64,000 nucleotides of DNA from NCBI GenBank assembly GCA_951406725.2, contig OX597824.1, positions 43,276,001-43,340,000 of the forward strand. The letters are read 5' to 3'. Below the pieces are notes generated by a model. The model had not been told where the DNA came from. It searched no databases and worked only from the letters and a program-made list of their open reading frames with translations. Below, piece by piece: positions 8,707 to 57,999 of the stretch. Source of the DNA: Octopus vulgaris. Taxonomy: Eukaryota. Position numbers and translations under genes: made by a program. How positions within the stretch are numbered: the first letter of the stretch is position 1; every line of letters starts with the position of its first letter.

Positions 8707-8950
<244 letters not shown>

Positions 8951-12703: not shown

Positions 12704-12709
<6 letters not shown>

Positions 12710-12930
12710 GCGTATACTAAGGATGACCACAAAGTGGACATCCAATATACTAGAAGATCACCTACGATATATCTACAAAGAAAAGAATGTTCTCTAGAGA
12801 AATTCAGCAAACATCTGGTGTTTGCGGAATTTCTCTAGAGAACATTCTTTCTTTGTATATAGATCGTAGGTGAACTTCTTCTAGCATATTAGATGTCCAC
12901 TTAGTGGTCACCCCTATTATACGCATGTAT
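12704..12930. repeat. Foldback inverted repeat (~108 bp arms) between (TA)n tracts
   Basis: ATACATGCGTATA...GAATGTTCTCTAGAGAAATTCAGCAAACA, a short loop, then TGTTTGCGGAATTTCTCTAGAGAACATTC...TATACGCATGTAT. Confidence 0.92.
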
Positions 12931-21702: not shown

Positions 21703-23147
21703 TATCGCCCAATCTCACTCACCTCCCACATCATTAAAGTGTTTGAAAGAGTGTTAAGATCAAGGATAGCTGACTTCCTGGAGACCCACAAACTCCTAAA
21801 TGCAAATCAGCATGGCTTTCGCTGTGACAGGGACTGTCTAACACAGCTCTTACACCACATTGAAGATGTACTCAAAGCCTTGGGAACAGCTTCGAACTCT
21901 GACGTCATATATCTTGACTTCAGTAAAGCGTTCGACAGGGTAGACCATAATATCCTACTCTCAAAATTGGCAAATGTTGGAATCCGGGGAAAAGTTCTAC
22001 ACTGGTTTAAGTATTTCCTGGCGAATAGAATACAACATGTTGTAGTTGATGGAGTCCACTCAAGCCCAGCAAAAGTCACCAGCGGTGTTTCCCAGGGGAC
22101 TGTTTTGGGTCCGCTACTCTTCATAATTTACATAAACGACCTTTCCAGTGTCGTACATTACTGCAAAGTGAAAATATTTGCTGATGACACTAAGCTCCAG
22201 CAAATCGTCAATGAAGAAGCAGACCGAACTCAACTCTAGTCTGATCTATATGCCGTTAGTCAATGGGCAGACAGAAATAAAATACAACTGAATGAGGGAA
22301 AATTTGAGCTGATGCATTTTGGAAGAAATTCCTCACTAAAACAACCATACTCTCTTCCTTCAGGGGAACCGCTCACAGCCTCTAACAATATCAGAGACCT
22401 GGGTGTAGTTGTTGATGACGATCGCAGTTGGAGTGCACACATCAACAAGAAGGTCGATATAGCTCGTAGGATGAGTTCCTGGATCTTAAGAACTTTCCGG
22501 TCCAGAGAACAAGGTGTCATCATACCACTTTCTTCCTCCCTTGTACGGCCACACCTTGAATACTGCTGCCCACTGTGGTCTCCCCATACAAGACAAAACA
22601 TCTCCAGAATTGAGTCTCCCCAGAGGGCACTCACTAAACGAATTGAAGGCATGGCCGCTCTCGATTATTGGGATCGCCTTAAGCCTTGAAACTTTACTCC
22701 CTCCAGCATCGCCGTGAGCGGTACATCATTTGTACGATGTGGAGAATATAGCGCCAACTTTGCCCAAACGACCTTAACATTAGCTTCAAGGTTCATCCAA
22801 GACTGGGACCACGGGCCATACGACCTCTGCCCAGTTCAAGATCACAACATACATGTACACTGCAACATAATTTCTTTTCCTCAACAGGCCCTGCCCTATT
22901 TAACATTGTCCCGAAGAAGATCAAAGAGGAAAAGGATCCCATCAACTTTAAACGGAGTCTGGATAGATTTCTTCAAAGAATACCAGATAAGCCACCCATA
23001 ATTCGATACAACTCACCCAACAAGAACTCACTACTTGAACAAAACTTGCCTTAAACAGGATTCGAATAATCCTATCAGGTGGTGCTATTAAATTAGACAT
23101 GGCCTGGACCAATCTTGGTCGAAACATATCTAAGTTTATCTAAGTTT
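21703..23147 (+). mobile_element. 5'-truncated CR1/L2-group LINE (RT), copy 1
   Basis: YRPISLTSHIIKVFE, NQHGFR, YLDFSKAFDRVDH, GVSQGTVLGPLLF, FADD, RDLGV, VRPHLEYC. Ends in a 3' stem-loop and a (TATCTAAGTT)2 tail. Confidence 0.95.
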
Positions 23148-23222
23148 ATATATATATATATATATATATAATTGTGTGTGTGTATGTATGTATGTATGTA
23201 CGTATATATCATATACATACAT

Positions 23223-23576
23223 ATAAGAAAATGAGATGAAAAAAGAATAAGAAAGGTTTTATTATGAACTTTATTAGCTTTCAGATGCAGTGGACTCATA
23301 GTTGAGTGGCTGAATAACAACCTATGCCTTCATCGGTGCCTCGAATATAGATTTAATCTAATTACCTTTGGATATACGCTTTTTTATATACATCAGTACT
23401 AACTTTGTGTCTGGGAATACTTTTTTCTAAATATAATGCACTTCATATTCGTCGCTTCGATGAAGTTATAGGATGTTATTCTGGCAGTCAAATATGAGTC
23501 TACTGCACCCAATAGCAGAAACGGCTCTAAGCTAAGGAAGTTCATTTTTTTTTTCATTGTCATCTCATTTTCTTAT
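23223..23576. repeat. Degenerate foldback element with hammerhead remnants in both arms
   Basis: ATAAGAAAATGAGATG pairs with CATCTCATTTTCTTAT, and GCAGTGGACTCATA pairs with TATGAGTCTACTGC. Plus arm 23454-23532 reads gct TCGATGAAG...AGAAAC ggctc TA agc. The minus arm retains CCGATGAAG. Confidence 0.65.
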
Positions 23577-23689
23577 TGCTGCTATGTACTCGTCTAACAC
23601 TTCATTCTAAAGCATACGTACACAGAGTTTTACCACAGCTCATTAGTCTCGCAATGCCTAAGTGAAATGAATACGCACGCACACACACA

Positions 23690-24163: not shown

Positions 24164-25572
24164 GAAAGAGTGTTAAGATCAAGGATAGCTGACTTCCTGG
24201 AGACCCACAAACTCCTAAATGCAAATCAGCATGGCTTTCGCTGTGACAGGGACTGTCTAACACAGCTCTTACACCACATTGAAGATGTACTCAAAGCCTT
24301 GGGAACAGGTTCGATCTCTGACGTCATATATCTTGACTTCAGAAAAGTGTTCGACAGGGTAGACCATAATATCCTACTCTCAAAATTGGCAAATGTTGGA
24401 ATCCGGGGAAAAGTTCTACACTGGATTAAGTATTTCCTGGCGAATAGAACACAACATGTTGTAGTTGATGGAGTCCACTCAAGCCCAGCAAAAGTCACCA
24501 GCGGTGTTCCCCAGGGGACTGTTTTGGGTCCGCTACTCTTCATAATTTACATAAACGACCTTTCCAGTGTCGTACATTACTGCAAAGTGAAAATATTTGC
24601 TGATGACACTAAGCTCCAGCAAATCGTCAATGAAGAAGCAGACCGAACTCAACTCCAGTCTAATCTATGTGCCGTGAGTCAATGGGCAGACAGAAACAAA
24701 ATGCAACTGAATGAGGGAAAATTTGAGCTGATGCATTTTGGAAGATATCCCCTCACTAAAACAACCATACTCTCTTCCTTCAGGGAAACCGCTCACAGCC
24801 TCTAACAATATCAGAGACCTGGGTGTAATTGTTGATGACGATTTCAGTTGGAGTGAGTGCACACATCAACAAGAAGGTCGATATAGCTCGTAGGATGAGT
24901 TCCTGGATCTTAAGAACTTTCCGGTCCAGAGAACAAGGTGTCATCAAACCACTTTTTTCCTCCCTTGTACGGCCACACCTTGAATACTGCTGCCCACTGT
25001 GGTCTTCCCATACAAGACAAAACATCTCCAGAATTGAGTCTCCCCAGAGGGCACTCACTAAACGAATTGAAGGCATGGCCGCTCTCCATTATTGGGATCG
25101 CCTTAAAGCCTTGAAACTCTACTCGCTCCAGCGTCGCCGTGAGCGGTACATCATTTGTACGATGTGGAGAATATAGCGCCAACTTTGCCCAAACGACCTT
25201 AACATTAGCTTCAAGGTTCATCCAAGACTGGGACCACGGGCCATACGACCCCTGCCCAGTTCAAGATCACAACATACATGTACACTGCAGCATAATTTCT
25301 TTTTCTCAACAGGCCCCGCCCTATTTAACATTGTCCCGAAGGAGATCAAAGAGGAAAAGGATCCCATCAACTTTAAACGGAGTCTGGATAGATTCACTCA
25401 AAGAATACCAGATAAGCCACCCATAATTCGATACAACTCACCCAACAAGAACTCACTACTTGAACAAAACTTGCCTTAAACAGGATTCGAATAATCCTAT
25501 CAGGTGGTGCTATTAAATTAGACATGGCCTGGACCAATCTTGGTCGAAACATATCTAAGTTTATCTAAGTTT
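24164..25572 (+). mobile_element. CR1/L2-group LINE RT, copy 2 (tandem duplicate)
   Basis: Near-identical to 21745-23147. ORF 24152..24805 contains GVPQGTVLGPLLF and FADD. Confidence 0.95.
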
Positions 25573-25637
25573 ATATATATATATATATATAATGTGTGTG
25601 TGTATGTATGTATGTACGTATATATCATATACATACA

Positions 25638-25991
25638 TATAAGAAAATGAGATGAAAAAAGAATAGGAAAGGTTTTATTATGAACTTCATTAGCTTTCAG
25701 ATGCAGTGGACTCATAGTTGAGTGGCTGAATAACAACCTATGACTTCATCGGTGCCTCGAATATAGATTTAATCTAATTACCTTTAAATATACGCTTTTT
25801 TATATACATCAGTACTAACTTTGTGTCTGGGAATACTTTTTTCTAAATATAATGCACTTCATATTCGTCGCTTCGATGAAGTTATAGGATGTTATTCTGG
25901 CAGTCAAATATGAGTCTACTGCACCCAATAGCAGAAACGGCTCTCAGCTAAGGAAGTTCATTTTTTTTTCATTGTCATCTCATTTTCTTAT
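25638..25991. repeat. Duplicate of the 23223-23576 foldback element
   Basis: Part of the tandem duplication. Confidence 0.7.
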
Positions 25992-26279
25992 TGCTGCTAT
26001 GTACTCGTCTAACACTTCATTCTAAAGCATACGTACACAGAGTTTTACCACAGCTTATTAGTCTCGCAATGCCTAAGTGAAATGAATACGCACACACACA
26101 CACACACAAACACACATATATATAGGATCCAATCCAATTGACAACGTAGGTCAAGTAGGTACTGTAAATCTAGGGTGAATACTTGATAATTGTAAGCACC
26201 TGTATACGCCACATAGTGGCAGGGGTGAGAGGGTATATATCAAATAAAATCAAAACCAGAATATATATATATATATATA

Positions 26280-34139: not shown

Positions 34140-34187
<48 letters not shown>

Positions 34188-34419
34188 AAATTAAGAATAA
34201 AATCTTTATAAGAAATTATCAGTAGTTAGCGTGAAAAACCACGTAAGAGAAAAAATCTGTAAATTTTTCCACTTTGAAAATATTTATTTATATTATATAG
34301 AGGGTACTATTATTCATAGGTACCGCACGCTAGAGGGACTTTTGCAGTCAAAACTACTAAAATAAACAAATTGTACCGAATGCAAAACTTCAAAGCAAGT
34401 TATTTAAAAACAGAATTTA

Positions 34420-34483
34420 GTTACATATCACCTGTGATTTCGCAATCAATGCAGAATATGCATTCTATGCTCTTCAGTGCAAC
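34420..34483 (-). ncRNA. Type I hammerhead ribozyme (left arm)
   Basis: Exact reverse complement of 34522-34585. Confidence 0.85.
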
Positions 34484-34521
34484 GAACTCAAGATATATAA
34501 GAAAAAACATGTCTTGAGTTC

Positions 34522-34585
34522 GTTGCACTGAAGAGCATAGAATGCATATTCTGCATTGATTGCGAAATCACAGGTGATATGTAAC
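34522..34585 (+). ncRNA. Type I hammerhead ribozyme (right arm)
   Basis: gttgca CTGAAGA gca tagaatgcatattctgcattgat tgc GAAA tcac ag gtga TA tgtaac, with an AUA triplet. Confidence 0.88.
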
Positions 34586-34835
34586 TAAATTCTGTTTTTA
34601 AATGACATGCTTTGAAGTTTTGCATTCGGTACAATTTGTTTATTTTAGTAGTTTTGACTGCAAAAGTCCCTCCTAGCGTGCGGTACCTATGAATAATAGT
34701 ACCCTCTATATAATATATATATATAAATTAGTGTACAATTTTATATATAGAAGAGGTGAAAGGGCAGTTAAAGCTCAAACCACGAATAAGAGTAATTTCA
34801 AAGAGAATGAAAAATAAAAACATTTCAATAGTTAT

Positions 34836-38950: not shown

Positions 38951-40022
38951 GAATATATGAACGTCTCATCTATTACAAATTTATATGGAAAATACCTGTA
39001 AGGTTACCATCCAAATCGAGACTACAGACAGAAATATTGATAATCAAGAGATATACAATGAGGAGATATACAACAATAAGTACCTTAAATCAGAGTTAAT
39101 CAACCGCTGCGAACTGTCTGCAGTTTATTAGCTGATTCAAACTTAATGCGTATAACTGTGTTCTTTTTGAGTTCTCCTCACACAGCTTATGATAATGGCC
39201 ATTTAGGCCAGAAAAATATTGAATATAACTGAACGTGTTCCTTTACAAAAATACATATACATATATCTATAATAATATATGCGAAAGCGAATGTCAGTGT
39301 GTCACTGCGTCACACTTTTTAACTTTACTCCTCGACCCCCTCTTACATTATTCATTGTCACTTCTAGTATTCTTCATTCTCGTTTTTTTCTTCCTCCTAG
39401 CATTTTGAAAATATATTTCTCTAAATATTATAATTCCCAAAATAAACAATAAAAAAATCTTTCTCTAAATATTATAACTGTATGAAGTGATTTAACCATA
39501 ACACGAGCTTCATAACCTTCGGAACTGAAGTACTTATTGAACTCACTCTCTCATACAATATTACCTCTCATAACTCTCTACCATAAAAATGTTGGTAACT
39601 TAGTATTTTTTCAGATATTAATAAAATTTGTCGGACCTATTTTCATGCCGTCGGCCGTCAGAGCTATGGAAATTTAGCGCACTCCGACTACATGAAAATA
39701 AATTTGACTAATTTTGTTATTACCTTAAAAAATACTAAATTTCAAATATCTTTATGGTTTAGAGCACTCCCAAACCATGAAAATCACACTTTGAAATAGT
39801 GTTTAGCGACAGCGGTGTAATTTTCTTTCAAACAACGGACAGGAGATTGAATACGTACCAGCTACTACAAATAATTGTTTGTACGAAAAGTAAGGCCCTA
39901 TGTGCACCAAATTCTCTTTAAATAAAATGGCGGCGGAAGAATTGTCGTTCAACTCATAAAAGCTGATTTATTGCTGCCTATGGCCAGCTATATGTTGTTG
40001 TTCAAGAGTAGGGAATGGAAAC

Positions 40023-40069
<47 letters not shown>

Positions 40070-40075
<6 letters not shown>

Positions 40076-40235
40076 CAGGCCTCTTTCAGTTTTTGTCTAT
40101 CAAATCCACTCAGAAGGGGCTGGTCAGCCCGAGGCTATAGTAGAAGACACTTGCCCTAGGAACCATGCAGGGGGACTGAACCCAGAACCATGTGGTTGAG
40201 ACGCAAGCTTCTTGCCTTACATCCATGCCCGTGCC
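40070..40235 (-). mobile_element. Family B SINE head, head-to-head with the next copy
   Basis: Reverse complement of the family B head. Confidence 0.82.
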
Positions 40236-40246
40236 TATGTATTTAT

Positions 40247-40402
40247 GTGGCTGTGTGGTAAGTAGCTTGTTTACCAACCACATGGTTCCGGATTCAGTCC
40301 CACTGCGTGGCACCTTGGGCAAGTGTCTTCTACTATAGCCTCGAGCCGACCGAAGCCTTGTGAGTGGATTTGGTAGACGGAAACTGAAAGAAGCCCGTCG
40401 TA

Positions 40403-44541: not shown

Positions 44542-46397
44542 AGAGATAGGTACATAAACAGATAAAGATGAGCATACATATCAAAGCGCAAATAAGTGAA
44601 TAAATGCAAAGATTGGTAGGTAAAGTGATAGATAGAGAAATAGGTAGATAAAGAGAGGGAAGGTAAACGGTGTGAAGAAAAGTATATACATGTGTGCGCG
44701 CGTGTGTGTGTATGTGTGCGCGCGTGTGTGTGTATGTGTGTATGTATATGTGTGTTTGTGTGTTTGAATGAAGGTGTGCACACGAGTGTATATGTATATA
44801 CATATAGAGATTCATAGAAAAGGAGTCATAGATTGATATTATAGATCTATGTGTGCGAGTGTATATATGTTTCTCTGTGTGTGTATATATGTATATATGT
44901 AAATAGATATAAATATAAATAGATATAAATAATATTCGTGATGAGAGAGAAACAGACAAACAGACGTAGAACAAAAGCGATAAAATGAAAACTAGGGACC
45001 AAGAATTACCGTGAAAATACTTAATTACTTCTTCAATCAGCTGATATTAATATGGCTGAATATTGATTTTCCTGTCATTATCGTTTCAGTTTCGTGTCCT
45101 CCAGCAACATTGCCAAAAGTATTACAACAAATACGCTCACTACTATCAATTCTAAGACGGCAATAGCTGTAAGTATACAAGTAACACTAGGCATGTAGGT
45201 ATGGTAGCGCCTCCAGGTTATGCAAGATAAAGGAACACCTTCCTCCATTCGAGCCACAAGAAACAAAGTAAAGCGATTCTCTGGAAGCAACAGAATATTG
45301 AAAAACAAACCGGAAGTTACGCCTTTGGAATATCAAACACGAAAACACTGGAAATAATCATCGTGTAGCGCTGACTTTGTTTTTTTTTGTTGTTTTTTTC
45401 CTGTGGAAAAATATAAATTGTCCGGATGGATAGAATGGTGTTCGTTTTGAAATTAATATTCGTCTTCAACCCGTTTAAAGGTCACACAAACGAGAGATAA
45501 ACACCAGCTACGTGAAGAACACACGCCCACATACAGTCACACATACAACACATTCACACACGAAGCCAAACAGTGAGTATGTACAGTTGAATCTATTAAA
45601 TTCTGTAATCTAAGGGCCTAGCTATTTGTAGATTACGGCAAAATGTCGGAAAACAAAAAGTGAATCTTCAGGATAGATCCTTAGTAAACATTGTGTTGCC
45701 ATCTCATACCACATCTGTATTTTCAACTGTGGAACAAAGCTTATAACAGAAAATAATAAAAATAATAATTCCTAAAAATATTTTAGAGGCGGAGACAAGC
45801 TGATTACATTAACCCCAGTTTTTGACTGATACAAAAGGACTAACGACAAAGCCGACATCGATAAAATTTTAGCTCAGAACGTAAAGAGCCGGAAAATAAT
45901 ATAATAATGGTTCAATTTTTTATACTGTCTCGTCTAAAACCCAAAATGTTCGAACATGTTACACCTTGATATCATTCACATCATCAACAGCTGCTGATGA
46001 TGAGGATATCTTCTACACTGGTATATCAGAGCCACATTTTCTATCACAATGTCGAGGTTTGGGGATATCTTTGTCTCTTCTGTTTATCAGGTATTTAGTA
46101 GCTATCTCCTGTTCCTGATTTGAATGCAATGGACCCACCAGAGGTTCAGGAGAGGTTACTCTTCTTGTCAATGCTGTTGTTATCTTCTAGCTTATGGAAT
46201 ATGTACCCATGAATTGCTTTTTACTAGTATGATGCCTGCTTCTCCTTTAAGCTTCTGTTTAGGTAGGTCAGTCATATATATATATCACTATATATAGGTA
46301 GGTCAGTCATATATATATATAAAGGGTAAAGACCCCCTTCGGTCATGAATGACCATGGGATTGCACCTAGAAAGTTACCCTCCTGGACACAAGTCTT

Positions 46398-46438
<41 letters not shown>

Positions 46439-46447
<9 letters not shown>

Positions 46448-46857
46448 AAAATAGTAAAGAGTGAAAAAACGACAGAAGGCTTAAATGTTAAAAAATATAT
46501 ATATTTGCGTCAAAATGTCTGGAGAATATTGGAAACATTTTTTTCCCTCCTTAAAATGACATAATTTTATAATTTTTAAAGAAATACCGGTTTCGCAGTT
46601 AGCTCTTCAAATTTCTTGTGACTTAATGTTTATTTTTAATAATACAAGGATTACGTTATTAAAAATAAACATTAAGTTACAAGAAATTTGAAGAGCTAAC
46701 TGCGAAACCGGTATTTCTTTAAAAATTATAAAATTATGTCATTTTAAGGAGGGAAAAAAATTTTCCAATATTCTCCAGACATTTTGACGCAAATATATAT
46801 ATTTTTTAACATTTAAGCCTTCTGTCGTTTTTTCACTCTTTACTATTTTCTTATATA
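46439..46857. repeat. Near-perfect palindrome (~203 bp arms) between (TA)n tracts, with a minimal hammerhead variant in each arm
   Basis: Arms 46439-46642 and 46656-46857 around a 13 nt loop. Plus strand 46681-46719 reads aagaaat TTGAAGA gc taact gc GAAA CCGG TA tttctt; the mirror copy is at 46579-46617. Confidence 0.95.
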
Positions 46858-46891
46858 TTCACCCACGTGCTTTACCAAACAAACTTTCTTA

Positions 46892-46933
<42 letters not shown>

Positions 46934-46949
46934 TATCCTTGTATCATCC

Positions 46950-47330
46950 AGATTACTGGATTTTGTTACGCATCGTTACTCACAATACGTTTCCAATTCT
47001 TTCTTGATTGCTCCTTTTTTCATCTTGGCAGCCCCAAATTGTTTAACTAAATCGTCTTCCCATCGTCATGGAGGACTTCCGAGTGGCCGTCTTTTCCGAT
47101 CTCTTTGATACCACTCAGCAACTACGGTAGTCCTCCTGTTGTCCCTGAAACGTGCGACATGTCTAAACCAGCGCAACTTGTGATTTCTGTATTCTGCTAT
47201 CACGTGGTTCACTCCACTCCGTTCTCGAAATATCTCATTTCGGATATGATCTCGAAATGATATTCTTAGCATGGATCTTTCTATGGCCTTTTGCATCGTA
47301 GCCACTCGATTTTCCTCCTTCTTCGTAGTA
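46950..47330 (-). mobile_element. RTE-clade LINE 3' fragment
   Basis: QKAIERSMLRIS..DHIRNE.FRERSGV...KLRWFRHVAR..DNR...W..RKRRPLGSPP.RWED. Confidence 0.88.
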
Positions 47331-47822
47331 GCTTACGTCTCACTTGCGTATAAAATCCGTGTGATATATATCGAGGGCGCGTAAGTAGGATATTGCATTC
47401 ACGATCGCGTGACCGTGTGTTTTTGATTCCCGGACGGGAAGAGTGGAGCGTTTGTTTTTGAGCAAAATACTTGATCTCACATTCCTCCGTGATCACTTCA
47501 AAATCTAACGCGTAGCACATCGTGCAACTCTACACATAATGTCGATTTGATGGAAAGAGTGATCAAATGTGCAGCGGAAACATTTGATCATTTGTGCAGT
47601 GTATTCAGCAAGAACCATCTTTCCCGAACTCGAGGAACTAGTATTAATTATAAAATTATATATACGTGTGTATATATGTGTGAGGGAGCATTTTTATAAA
47701 CAAATATCGAAGCATCAAGAGACTGGTATTTTACAACTGAAGGAAATCTTGAATGAAGGAGAATAGCTGCGGAAACAGAAGATCGGTTAAAATACCCTTA
47801 TAGACAGAAAAAAATGGCATGA

Positions 47823-54899: not shown

Positions 54900-57660
54900 G
54901 ATGGTCATGTTGCCAGTTTGGATAATAAACACCACACGCACTTGCTTCAGCTTTATTTTATATTCATCGCATTTCGGCCAGAGTTCTTTCGTCACGCTTC
55001 TGTGACCTCATCAGTGGTCCTTTGCTTTCTTCTTTCTTTTTTGTGTGTCTTTTCTTACTAATGATCAGCCATTTTGTATTCCTATTGTGTCTTTATTCGC
55101 GAATGCGTATAACCCTGTGTGCCTATGCTTAGTGTGTGGGGGGATGTGCTTGTATTATCAGTATCTCCTGTTTATACACGTTCGTGTAATTTGTCTTTAT
55201 TTATTTTGCACATTTGTTTTTCTTTTCTTTCTTTTTTGTTTCTTTTTTTTATTCAATTCAATTTATTTTATTTTGTTAATGTATATAGTTATTTAATTCC
55301 ATTCATTTATCTGTGTATTGTATTATATTATATTCATATTGTTATCAGTTTATGGGGATCTTATTCTGTCATAGGTTGTGGTGTGGTGGGGTGTGTGCTA
55401 GTGTTGCATTCTAGTTTCCTATTCAGGCTAGGTTTATCTTCTATTATGTGTGTAGCTTCTGTAAATTGTCTGAGCGTTGCGTCTGTTCTATGTGTGGACT
55501 AGATTTTAACTTCTATGTTGTTGAGCGAGTCCCCGTGTTCCTGCTCGGCGGGCTGGTACAGAACCGATGAACTCTTCTCTTCCTTAAGTTCCCTCCGATG
55601 GTCATTTACCCGCTCTCCTATGCTCTGTGCTGTTTCCTCTACGCCTACGTACGTCGTTGTCTTGTTACTGCACCGTCCCTCTGTACATCTTATACTATAG
55701 ACTGCATCCCTGGCTTTACACCTACTAAAAAGGTTCTACCGATTAGGGATTTGATAGGGTTGCCTGGCCTTTCTACAACTTTAATTCTTAGCTTAAGTTT
55801 GTTTAGGGCCATTCTGAAGCGGTACGCCAGTTCGCCTCTTAGGGTGGTGTCGACGAACATGACACTGTGGTATTTGTGGTTATCATGCCATGAGTTGGCC
55901 TTCCTTTTTTCTTCTCAGTCTTTTCAATGGTGTTCCATGACTTGCTCCTATAGAATGGGCAAATCCCATTCCGATCGTTATGTATGATAGTTTCAAATTT
56001 CCTCATAGCTCCTTTATATACTCTGATCCTTTCTGTTTGGCTGTATCCTGAGAACTGCATGCTTTGAACGAAATGATGTATGTGTCTCTGTAACTCCGTA
56101 GGGTCGCACATGCATGACACATTTCTCACTACTCTGATGAGGTCTTCTATCAATATATTGAATTTGGCATTGTTCGCGATACTGAGTTCCGGTGGATCAG
56201 GTATTTGGAGGTCATAGGTTTGGCATAGTGTGAATGAAGGATTCGGGTTTTAATATTCACAGTTTCCAGCCAGAGTTCTGTATCTAGTACTGGTAGTCTA
56301 TGGCTGGAGTGTTTCTTTCGAAGGGTAGTCTATCGTAACCTTAATACTCTAGCGGATAGAGTTAGCTATTTGATGGATGCTCTCCACAGTATTAGTTTCT
56401 ATTTCTATTTCAAGAGTACTCTCTTGTGGGAGTACCTTTACCACTACCTTGATATCATTGACATAGCAGAGTACATGTTCATGAGTATGGAGTTCTGTAT
56501 CAGGCGTTCTTTAAGCCTTCTCTCCCACCATACCATGAAAAGTTTGGCCACATCACCAGTGATACTAACCCTGTTGGCTGTCCCCTCATCCTAGGCGTAT
56601 GCATTGTTGTTAAACTTAAACGTGTGGCCTTTTAGGGCAACTCTTATACTAGCTCCTAGTGCATGTGCGATCATTTTCTTTACTTGATATTCGTTTGCGG
56701 GAGTCCGTATGGTTCTGGTCCATCCGATCCATCTCTCTATAGGGGTCTTCCTAGCCATAGAAGTAATTGTGGGTGGTCTACCACTTACACATCTACTGGA
56801 GTAGAAACTTCTAAGGTAATGTTTGTCTATATATTCATTGTCATATGTCAGTCTAAGTAGGAGGCCCAGTTCCTCTATGTCGACATTGTGGAACTCCACT
56901 TCGCTCTCGTTGATCATCTCCATGCACTTCTCCACCGCAAAATCTACGTCGACAGATGGGTATAGGGATAGCACATGTATACTACCCACTACATCCTGTC
57001 AGGTCGCAGGTGTTGTTACAGTAGTTGATCCTGCTGAGGAGATGTTCCGTGCTGTCACAAACATCAGGTGACATCCGGCTTATGGGGTGTATGATCATTG
57101 AGAGGAAGTAGGAGATCCTGTAGTTGCTAGCGATATTCGCTCCACAGACTGACTGGTCTTGTTGGTGGTCCCGCCACAGGATCAGTGGTTACTTTGTGGT
57201 CCTTGCGGAATCCATACAGCTTCGGGATGTTGTTGTTCCAGGCTAGTAAATTGTTGGCTATGCGTTTATGTGGTCCAAGAACAATTGTCCACATCATCAT
57301 GTGAGCGTTGAGGACCTTTTCTCTCTCCTCATGCGCTCGCAAAGTTGTTACTTTCATATTGGCGATGTGAGGTTGCATTACCTGGATGTAGTTCAGCAAG
57401 CTGTCTATCGACATTCTGCCGGACTTATATGTGGGGAGGCATACCACCTCTCCGTTCATCCTGAGCTGCATGAGCTTAGGTAGGCAACACGGTATATTCC
57501 CGGGTTGTTGGGCATCTGTCTTATTTTTTATCTTAGTGTATAGTTCTAAAATCTGTCAAAGTTTGGTCCTAGGTATAGTGAATTGTGCTTCCATGTGATC
57601 ACTAGTATATCTTGTGATGCAGACCCTTTTGTTAAAGGGTAATGTTGTCGGGTAAATACT
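54900..57660 (-). mobile_element. Defective Penelope-like element: RT, GIY-YIG endonuclease and 3' hammerhead
   Basis: RT motifs IPKLYGFRKDHK..PPTRPV, GSIHVLSLYPS, FKFNN...G..S.TGDVAKLFM, LPVLD and LIRVVRNVS. GIY-YIG at 55720-55405: C..AVYSIRC..C...YVG..ET..SIGERVNDH...EATHI....PSLN. Multiple stops and frameshifts. Confidence 0.9.
54976..55019 (-). ncRNA. Hammerhead ribozyme in the PLE 3' region (pLTR)
   Basis: Minus strand reads gacca CTGATGA g gtcac agaagc gtgac GAAA G aa C TC tggcc. Confidence 0.85.
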
Positions 57661-57939
57661 GCTCATGTTGTACGATTTGTCACATATGTTGAAAAACTGG
57701 GTGTCAAGGGGGTGGGTATTGATGTTGTTGGCAATTCTAGGGTCATCTTCCTTACTACCACTACTACTACCACTAACGTCGTTACTGCTACCATCATCAA
57801 CTCTACTATTACTACCAGTAGTGGTAGTGGTAGTAGTAGCGGTAGTGAGGAAGATAACACCAGAAGGGCCGACGACATGAATACCCACCCGCTTGACTCT
57901 CAGTTTTTCAACATATGTGACAAATCTTACAACATGAGC
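57661..57939. repeat. Foldback (~115 bp arms) at the 5' end of the PLE
   Basis: GCTCATGTTGTACGATTTGTCACATATGTTGAAAAACTG pairs with CAGTTTTTCAACATATGTGACAAATCTTACAACATGAGC. Confidence 0.93.
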
Positions 57940-57999
57940 CGAAATACGATTAGCATAAAATAAAGCTGAAGCAAGTGAACACCATATATATGGGTACAG

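Follow-up and report, generated by a model that had tools for sequence, protein, structure and literature searches.

What kind of insertion leaves a long, nearly perfect palindrome between two (TA)n runs, with a ribozyme-like motif on each strand? The question is raised by positions 46401-46930 of a 64,000-nt stretch of the Octopus vulgaris genome (hereafter the window, to which all coordinates refer), which is AT-rich (31-44% GC) and rich in microsatellites and decayed retroelements. We consider it highly probable (roughly 0.88) that a Penelope-like element (PLE) gave rise to this insertion, which would be either 5'-truncated or non-autonomous and consist of the pLTR end alone.

Architecture of the palindrome

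The original prediction described a palindrome of ~420 bp with (TA)n on both sides, ~203 bp arms, a short loop and an extension of ~35 bp, and this description was borne out. Alignment of the two arms gave an inverted repeat of ~420 nt with 99.0% identity over 204 nt and only two differences, an extra C at 46536 and a substitution at the pair 46620/46678. The left (TA)n run (46401-46445, 45 nt) shares a few bases with the end of the arm and is likely one half of the microsatellite that served as target. It is followed by the left arm (46439-46642, 204 nt), an inverted, tail-less copy whose sense lies on the minus strand, then by a 13-nt loop (46643-46655, plus strand) and by the right arm (46656-46858, 203 nt), a direct copy with its sense on the plus strand and of pLTR-like size, delimited by the alignment and of multi-copy depth. 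A 35-nt A/C-rich tail (46859-46893, plus strand) extends the right copy, on this side only, and leads into the right (TA)n run (46894-46930, 37 nt). The left copy is 13 nt shorter than the right one at its 5' end, that is, at the centre, and the loop is likely the stretch of element sequence that lies furthest 5' in the longer right copy. The flanks of the palindrome show no mirror symmetry, and any target-site duplication would be masked by the (TA)n runs.

Two short repeated words were found at these boundaries. The 8-mer TTTCTTAT ends both the arm (46847) and the tail (46885), the two copies being 38 nt apart; it occurs 17 times in the window, both strands counted. The loop also has a 10-mer in common with the right flank, read as its reverse complement near 46935-46945, which we treated as chance because loop-like sequence occurs in family contigs.

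The element is non-coding. Stops break all three sense frames, leaving no open frame through arm plus tail, and there is no RT plus GIY-YIG ORF between the arms; the 46.4-kb element is thus ruled out as an autonomous EN+ PLE. Searching the window with each arm (blastn, word size 7) returned only the element's own two arms, and all window matches to arm sequence outside them were of at most 20 nt. The top Rfam match in the window, MIR5380, scored 82.7 bits against a gathering score of 150 and mirrors the hairpin alone. Among the 150 of 237 Rfam matches listed for the window, microRNA-precursor models matched hairpins and microsatellites, all below their gathering scores.

The immediate surroundings are themselves repetitive. 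Left of the palindrome, a repeat of very high abundance (depth 0.5-3.4 million in the sequencing runs X1, X2 and X3 described below) is present at 46320-46400 as a truncated copy with a small internal hairpin and no Rfam match; its family contigs run past 46376-46381 into other sequence. Further left, at 46263-46321, a unique stretch of 20 nt is directly duplicated together with (TA)n. To the right, 46931-47500 (minus strand) holds the 3' end of a decayed LINE ORF2, which we take from its motif to be RTE-like and which ends at the right (TA)n run. Among the Atlas clusters closest to this ORF2 end is a fragment of an endonuclease-reverse transcriptase (score 0.95, low recognition).

A single hammerhead-like motif, doubled by inversion

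Paired minimal hammerhead variants had been proposed for the two arms. A scripted scan combined with folding found the motif exactly as it had been written, at 46681-46719 on the plus strand and at 46579-46617 on the minus strand (N3 at 46610, position 8 at 46605), as a minimal type I core with the palindromic stem III ACCGGU. On the plus strand, a 6-bp stem I (46681-46686/46714-46719) is followed by an extra U at 46687, the core U3-U4-G5-A6-A7-G8-A9 at 46688-46694 (UUGAAGA), a 2-bp stem II, GAAA at 46704-46707 and ACCGGU at 46707-46712, and cleavage is predicted after A17 at 46713. The core fits N3-U4-G5-A6-N7-N8-A9 with a 3-8 pair (U3·G8), and the type I elements G12-A13-A14, A15.1-U16.1 and H17 (A, 46713) are all in place.

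There is one occurrence of the motif per strand, and both point away from the palindrome centre. The "pair" is therefore one motif doubled by inversion, with one sense and one antisense copy on each strand. U3 in both arms, correctly predicted as a replacement of C3, is consequently not independent evidence, as the motif was duplicated together with its arm. Lying on opposite strands, the two copies are unable to form a dimer inside a single transcript.

The extra U had been missed. TTTGAAGA comprises 8 nt against the 7-nt core CUGANGA, which leaves one U (46687) between stem I and position 3. In an alternative register this U pairs with A46713, and no nucleotide 17 is left. A direct junction of stem I to both N3 and N17 is thus absent in either case, because of the extra U in one register and the absent N17 in the other, and for this reason we call the motif hammerhead-like, or a variant. 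The extra U is predicted to weaken cleavage.

Across the whole window, both strands included, the scan gave five matches, two from the canonical hammerhead of a palindrome at 34.3 kb, two from the 46.4-kb motif and a weak one at 12.2 kb, compared with 0.17 matches on average in block-shuffled windows (30 shuffles). The relaxed descriptor matched 2 of 5000 dinucleotide shuffles of arm plus tail. As this descriptor, which admits U3 and one extra base, was fixed after the motif had been seen, these figures overstate the significance. Rfam returned 3 matches at E up to 10 at the 46.4-kb motif and 4 at the canonical 34.5-kb motif, in both cases with no hammerhead among them.

Folding calculations suggest at most a modest ribozyme. 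The monomeric hammerhead fold was computed at +3.6 kcal/mol, indicative of an unstable structure. For dimers, the double-hammerhead form came to -13.1 kcal/mol, compared with -15.1 kcal/mol for the best form, which lacks N17, so that the catalytic register is computed to be about 2 kcal/mol less stable than the register without N17. A transcript through the whole palindrome folds at a computed -305.7 kcal/mol with all 39 motif bases inside the long duplex, and read-through transcription is accordingly predicted to bury the motif completely. By these models, the hammerhead would cleave weakly at best, and only as an intermolecular dimer through ACCGGU. It is likely the usual passenger of a pLTR and is probably dispensable for insertion; in the anole work of PMC11167929, hammerhead mutants still insert and the hammerhead is not needed.

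Arms and tail belong to a multi-copy family

Words of the element were found in 20 of 24 listed public sequencing runs (10 studies, four organism labels), and the family was surveyed in the contigs of four runs, X1, X2 and X3 (DNA-like) and X11, which is possibly RNA, no run with such words being labelled as such. Bins across the arms reached a summed depth of about 1e4 to 4e5 in X1, X2 and X3, against about 25-62 for unique-flank contigs; summed contig depth serves here as a multi-copy marker and gives no copy number. The tail behaves alike: the bin 46869-46919 had depths of 10118/3249/8516 against 118/43/150 in the next bin (X1/X3/X2), and the tail is therefore element sequence. Arms and tail thus belong to a multi-copy family, which we take to be dispersed, with only one copy in the window. 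The contig that crosses arm and tail (X11, record 16) holds only about 23 nt of tail, below the 31-nt rule for bridging.

The family also defines the core, the prediction having left it to a family consensus whether U3 is fixed. At 46605, the base corresponding to sense A8 (read as T) accounted for 114056 of 128215 in X1 (89%, 22 contigs), 25805 of 34741 in X3 (74%, 9 contigs), 59692 of 63269 in X2 (94%, 9 contigs) and 2392 of 2392 in X11 (100%, 3 contigs). With A8 at 74-100% of the depth, the family core is U3-A8, a Watson-Crick 3-8 pair. No variant at N3 or at the extra U was seen among the variants listed (40 of 306; indels, 12 of 92). U3 thus held up in the family, whereas the G8 carried by both arms of the 46.4-kb copy is a minority base. 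Its presence in both points to one template, or a single source locus, for the two arms. The stem II loop is different in one X11 contig, in which the extra U, U3, A8, GAAA, CCGG and both pairs of stem II are retained.

At 46678 all four runs carry the left arm's base; the right arm is therefore the one that mutated, after insertion. Many family contigs are 90-95% alike to the 46.4-kb copy, compared with 99% between its own arms. Two X11 contigs pass 46641 with sequence that resembles the reverse complement of the loop and extends further, and one has 28 unmatched bases upstream. As contigs continue past 46641, the family probably has no fixed end at the hairpin centre. Among the 12 of 92 indels listed, variants lie around 46537-46547 and 46753-46760. 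A joint of 46498 to 46825 in one X3 contig, among the 15 of 90 joints listed and given without strand, could reflect either a deletion variant or a hairpin centred elsewhere, and was left uncounted.

Outside these runs, a degenerate hammerhead pattern gave 0 family members in the metagenome contig collection, and the viral contig collection likewise gave 0 matches. Six metagenome contigs matched an 18-mer of the arm and were rejected, blastn aligning at most 29 bases.

Related designs elsewhere in the window

The palindrome at 34.3 kb (34186-34749) had been described as sharing the architecture of the 46.4-kb element with an entirely different sequence. The latter part was upheld, the word-size-7 search with the 46.4-kb arms having found no homology between the two. 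As to architecture, arm and loop lengths agree (203-204 nt and 12 nt at 34.3 kb), but the unique stretch between (TA)n and arm is about 105 nt there, on the left side, and not ~35. The 34.3-kb palindrome carries a canonical type I hammerhead, again outward-reading (N3 at 34528 on the plus and 34477 on the minus strand). A small extra palindrome (34726-34749) follows its right (TA)n run.

A further element lies at 54940-57977 (minus strand). A protein fragment at 56591-56995 (minus strand) has 194 relatives at E up to 0.001, and eight of the longer ones map a frameshifted ORF over 55.4-57.7 kb (tblastn, best E 1e-79). For a full-length relative, P0007, the nearest Atlas clusters carry RVT_1 and GIY-YIG, and by eye its sequence has the CxxC linker and the GIY-YIG-like motif of EN+ PLEs. 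From these similarities we assign 54940-57977 as a decayed RT/GIY-YIG Penelope-like element. Near its 3' end lies a hammerhead (55014, minus strand), and its 5' end is folded back head to head (57661-57790 with 57813-57939), with a tip (57938-57977) that mirrors the 3' end. In this inverted tip, the switch to 3'-end sequence takes place at a short shared word next to the hammerhead. The relic was considered as the autonomous partner of the 46.4-kb element and rejected, as it has no similarity to the 46.4-kb arm or tail. It belongs to another family, yet it shows the same design on an element that encodes an RT.

An old palindrome at 23214-23588 (about 65% arm identity) has the 10-mer ATAAGAAAAT at its outer ends in common with the 46.4-kb element; a descriptor scan found no hammerhead in it, and it is possibly an older relative with the same 3' end. 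Four short palindromes (12706-12928, 8717-8846, 39574-39764 and 40071-40402) have arm identities of 73-87%. The first three were scanned and gave no hammerhead match, and the last is an inverted pair of a dispersed repeat. Separately, a LINE RT fragment (Pfam RVT_1, E 9e-25) is present twice in direct orientation, at 21745-23675 and 24164-26090 (1.9 kb, 96.7%), through either a tandem insertion or an uncollapsed haplotype.

The insertion resembles those of Penelope-like elements

Our assignment rests on a combination of features. The 46.4-kb locus holds a head-to-head inverted and 5'-truncated copy, a 35-nt 3' tail on one copy, a minimal type I hammerhead within the repeat, membership of a multi-copy family and a (TA)n target. 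We read it as a PLE insertion because the inverted head-to-head copy, the one-sided tail of 30-40 nt, the (TA)n target and minimal hammerheads on opposite strands are published hallmarks of PLEs. In PMC8557442, PLE insertions are described as inverted and 5'-truncated copies that show a (TA)n bias and often have a tail of 30-40 bp at only one end, and PMC3846280 reports pLTRs of 193-218 bp, a 31-bp tail and palindromes at head-to-head junctions that it attributes to self-priming. The EN+ PLE insertions of these papers (Penelope/Poseidon, Neptune, Nematis and Hydra; Pen2a_Av in PMC3846280; the legend of Fig. 2 in PMC8557442) share with the octopus element the head-to-head inverted copy, the repeat of ~200 nt, the 30-40-nt tail on one copy only, the hammerhead upstream of the 3' end and the (TA)n target. 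They differ from it in that the 46.4-kb copy has no ORF between its repeats. No sequence link to an autonomous PLE was found: the arms do not match the relic at 55-58 kb, and the scans of the metagenome and viral contig collections gave no homologue. The prediction had argued that one layout in unrelated families points to a shared insertion mechanism rather than chance (foldback or self-primed reverse transcription), and this agrees with PLE retrotransposition as described in PMC8557442, PMC3846280 and PMC11167929.

In vitro, the PLE protein of PMC11167929 cleaves and extends both target strands at AT-rich sites, and reverse transcription starts at two internal sites in an AC-rich stem-loop, whose spacing equals the tail. 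By analogy, the RT/GIY-YIG protein of an unseen autonomous PLE would have acted in trans and nicked the (TA)n run on both strands, and each 3'-OH would have primed reverse transcription on element RNA. The two internal sites used as starts would lie 35-38 nt from each other, with the same 8-mer at their ends. Two short cDNAs may then have stopped about 200-250 nt upstream and been joined head to head, the tail being carried by the cDNA from the downstream start. Priming from both strands would account for the observed polarity, with RNA 3' ends at the (TA)n runs and 5' ends central, and the same 8-mer at the end of arm and tail agrees with a pair of start sites that resemble each other locally and adjoin TA. 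Self-primed foldback, an equally published route to the same product, could also have produced the locus, and the two are not separable here.

The hammerhead fits the same picture. Minimal type I hammerheads are described in PLE pLTRs in PMC4209133, as dual motifs 100-700 bp apart on opposite strands, a pairing shared by the octopus motif, and with palindromic stem III and low, dimer-dependent cleavage. Among those printed in the text of its Fig. S3, Saccoglossus_kowalevskii(1) has the same UUGAAGA core (U3·G8), and the family core U3-A8 is that of Schistosoma_mansoni(3) and (4), the covariant U3-A8 having ~1,300 matches in Schistosoma mansoni. The shrimp hammerhead Marsupenaeus_japonicus shares the N-CG-N palindromic stem III, A17 and the absence of a nucleotide after A9. 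Unlike these, the 46.4-kb motif has a 2-bp stem II and the extra U before N3; a base between helix I and N3 occurs in none of the 56 rows of Fig. S3 in the text available. Natural U3-A8 cores, and 2a/2b insertions that impair cleavage, are reported in PMC3088659 for saltern metagenome and halovirus hammerheads. These share an insertion beside position 3 and stem I with our predicted motif, but they are prokaryotic or viral and a two-nucleotide insertion strongly lowered their cleavage, as opposed to one inserted U in an animal repeat. Small PLE hammerhead variants with cleavage in dimeric form were the subject of Lünse et al. (RNA Biol 14:1499, as cited in PMC6765202), where the extra-U variant may already be covered. 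Our literature search found no measured rate for U3·G8.

A link to non-LTR retrozymes was also considered. These are likewise non-coding with a type I hammerhead, and are thought to be derived from or mobilised by PLEs (PMC7229834; bioRxiv 10.64898/2026.07.22.740005). In these sources, however, the hammerheads of retrozymes lie on the same strand, in tandem repeats of 170-400 nt arranged head to tail, whereas the 46.4-kb element is a head-to-head pair with a tail; the window shows only the two inverted arms and no head-to-tail units, and a non-LTR retrozyme was ruled out.

Alternative origins

A DNA transposon of MITE or foldback type, with long inverted repeats as its termini, inserted at TA and carrying the hammerhead-like motif incidentally, would also yield a non-coding palindrome with TA on both sides, and the older palindrome at 23.2-23.6 kb, with ATAAGAAAAT in common at its termini and no hammerhead match, is what such a family might contain. 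The ends of the 46.4-kb element are asymmetric, however, as the multi-copy 35-nt tail lies outside one arm, so that the inverted repeats are not both termini, and family sequence extends beyond the inner end of the inverted copy (loose end in X11, at 46641). Both the covarying U3-A8 of the family core and the outward-reading hammerheads in two unrelated palindromes also argue against an incidental motif, and we regard a DNA transposon as very unlikely.

The near-equal arms (203-204 nt) and loops (12-13 nt) of two unrelated elements invite the view that the hairpin itself is the mobile unit, a non-autonomous PLE derivative that transposes as a whole foldback of ~450 nt and does not arise anew; the listed indels around 46537-46547 and 46753-46760 would fit such a non-coding family. 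About 200 nt is, on the other hand, the published size of a pLTR as well (193-218 bp in the text of PMC3846280). Moreover, arms that are 99% alike with a common minority G8, while many contigs stand at 90-95%, fit copying at insertion, and contigs with other sequence upstream of 46641 (X11 record 13 and the loose ends) do not suit a hairpin of fixed size, which therefore has only a slight chance of being correct.

Lastly, an assembly or library artefact, in which one repeat copy was folded back into a chimera, is extremely improbable: although no contig among those listed from the four runs bridges the whole element, such a hole proves nothing, and the two arm differences (with the left arm's base at 46678 in four runs, as after post-insertion mutation), the unmirrored flanks, the one-sided tail and the recurrence of the design at 34.3 kb and at the PLE relic all speak against it.

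Returning to the PLE insertion, a more elaborate version can be imagined, in which an animal PLE family keeps an active hammerhead with U3-A8 and a family-wide inserted U, and slippage between the cleaving register and the stabler register without N17 acts as a brake that is released by the PLE protein; the hairpin plus tail of ~450 nt might also move as a unit. We consider this unlikely.

Significance

The value of the finding is mainly one of annotation. Where a long palindrome lies between (TA)n runs and has outward-reading hammerheads and an extension of 30-40 nt on one side, it can be taken for the footprint of a PLE insertion and not for a new class of element. At 46.4 kb the geometry agrees with the model of two start sites that came from studying the anole element in vitro, and the 8-mer common to both 3' ends is a small testable detail. 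U3 cores are not new, both U3-A8 and U3·G8 being printed for PLE hammerheads in PMC4209133; the remaining oddity is the extra U between stem I and position 3. If this family-wide U is compatible with cleavage, it would add one more tolerated variant of the hammerhead core.
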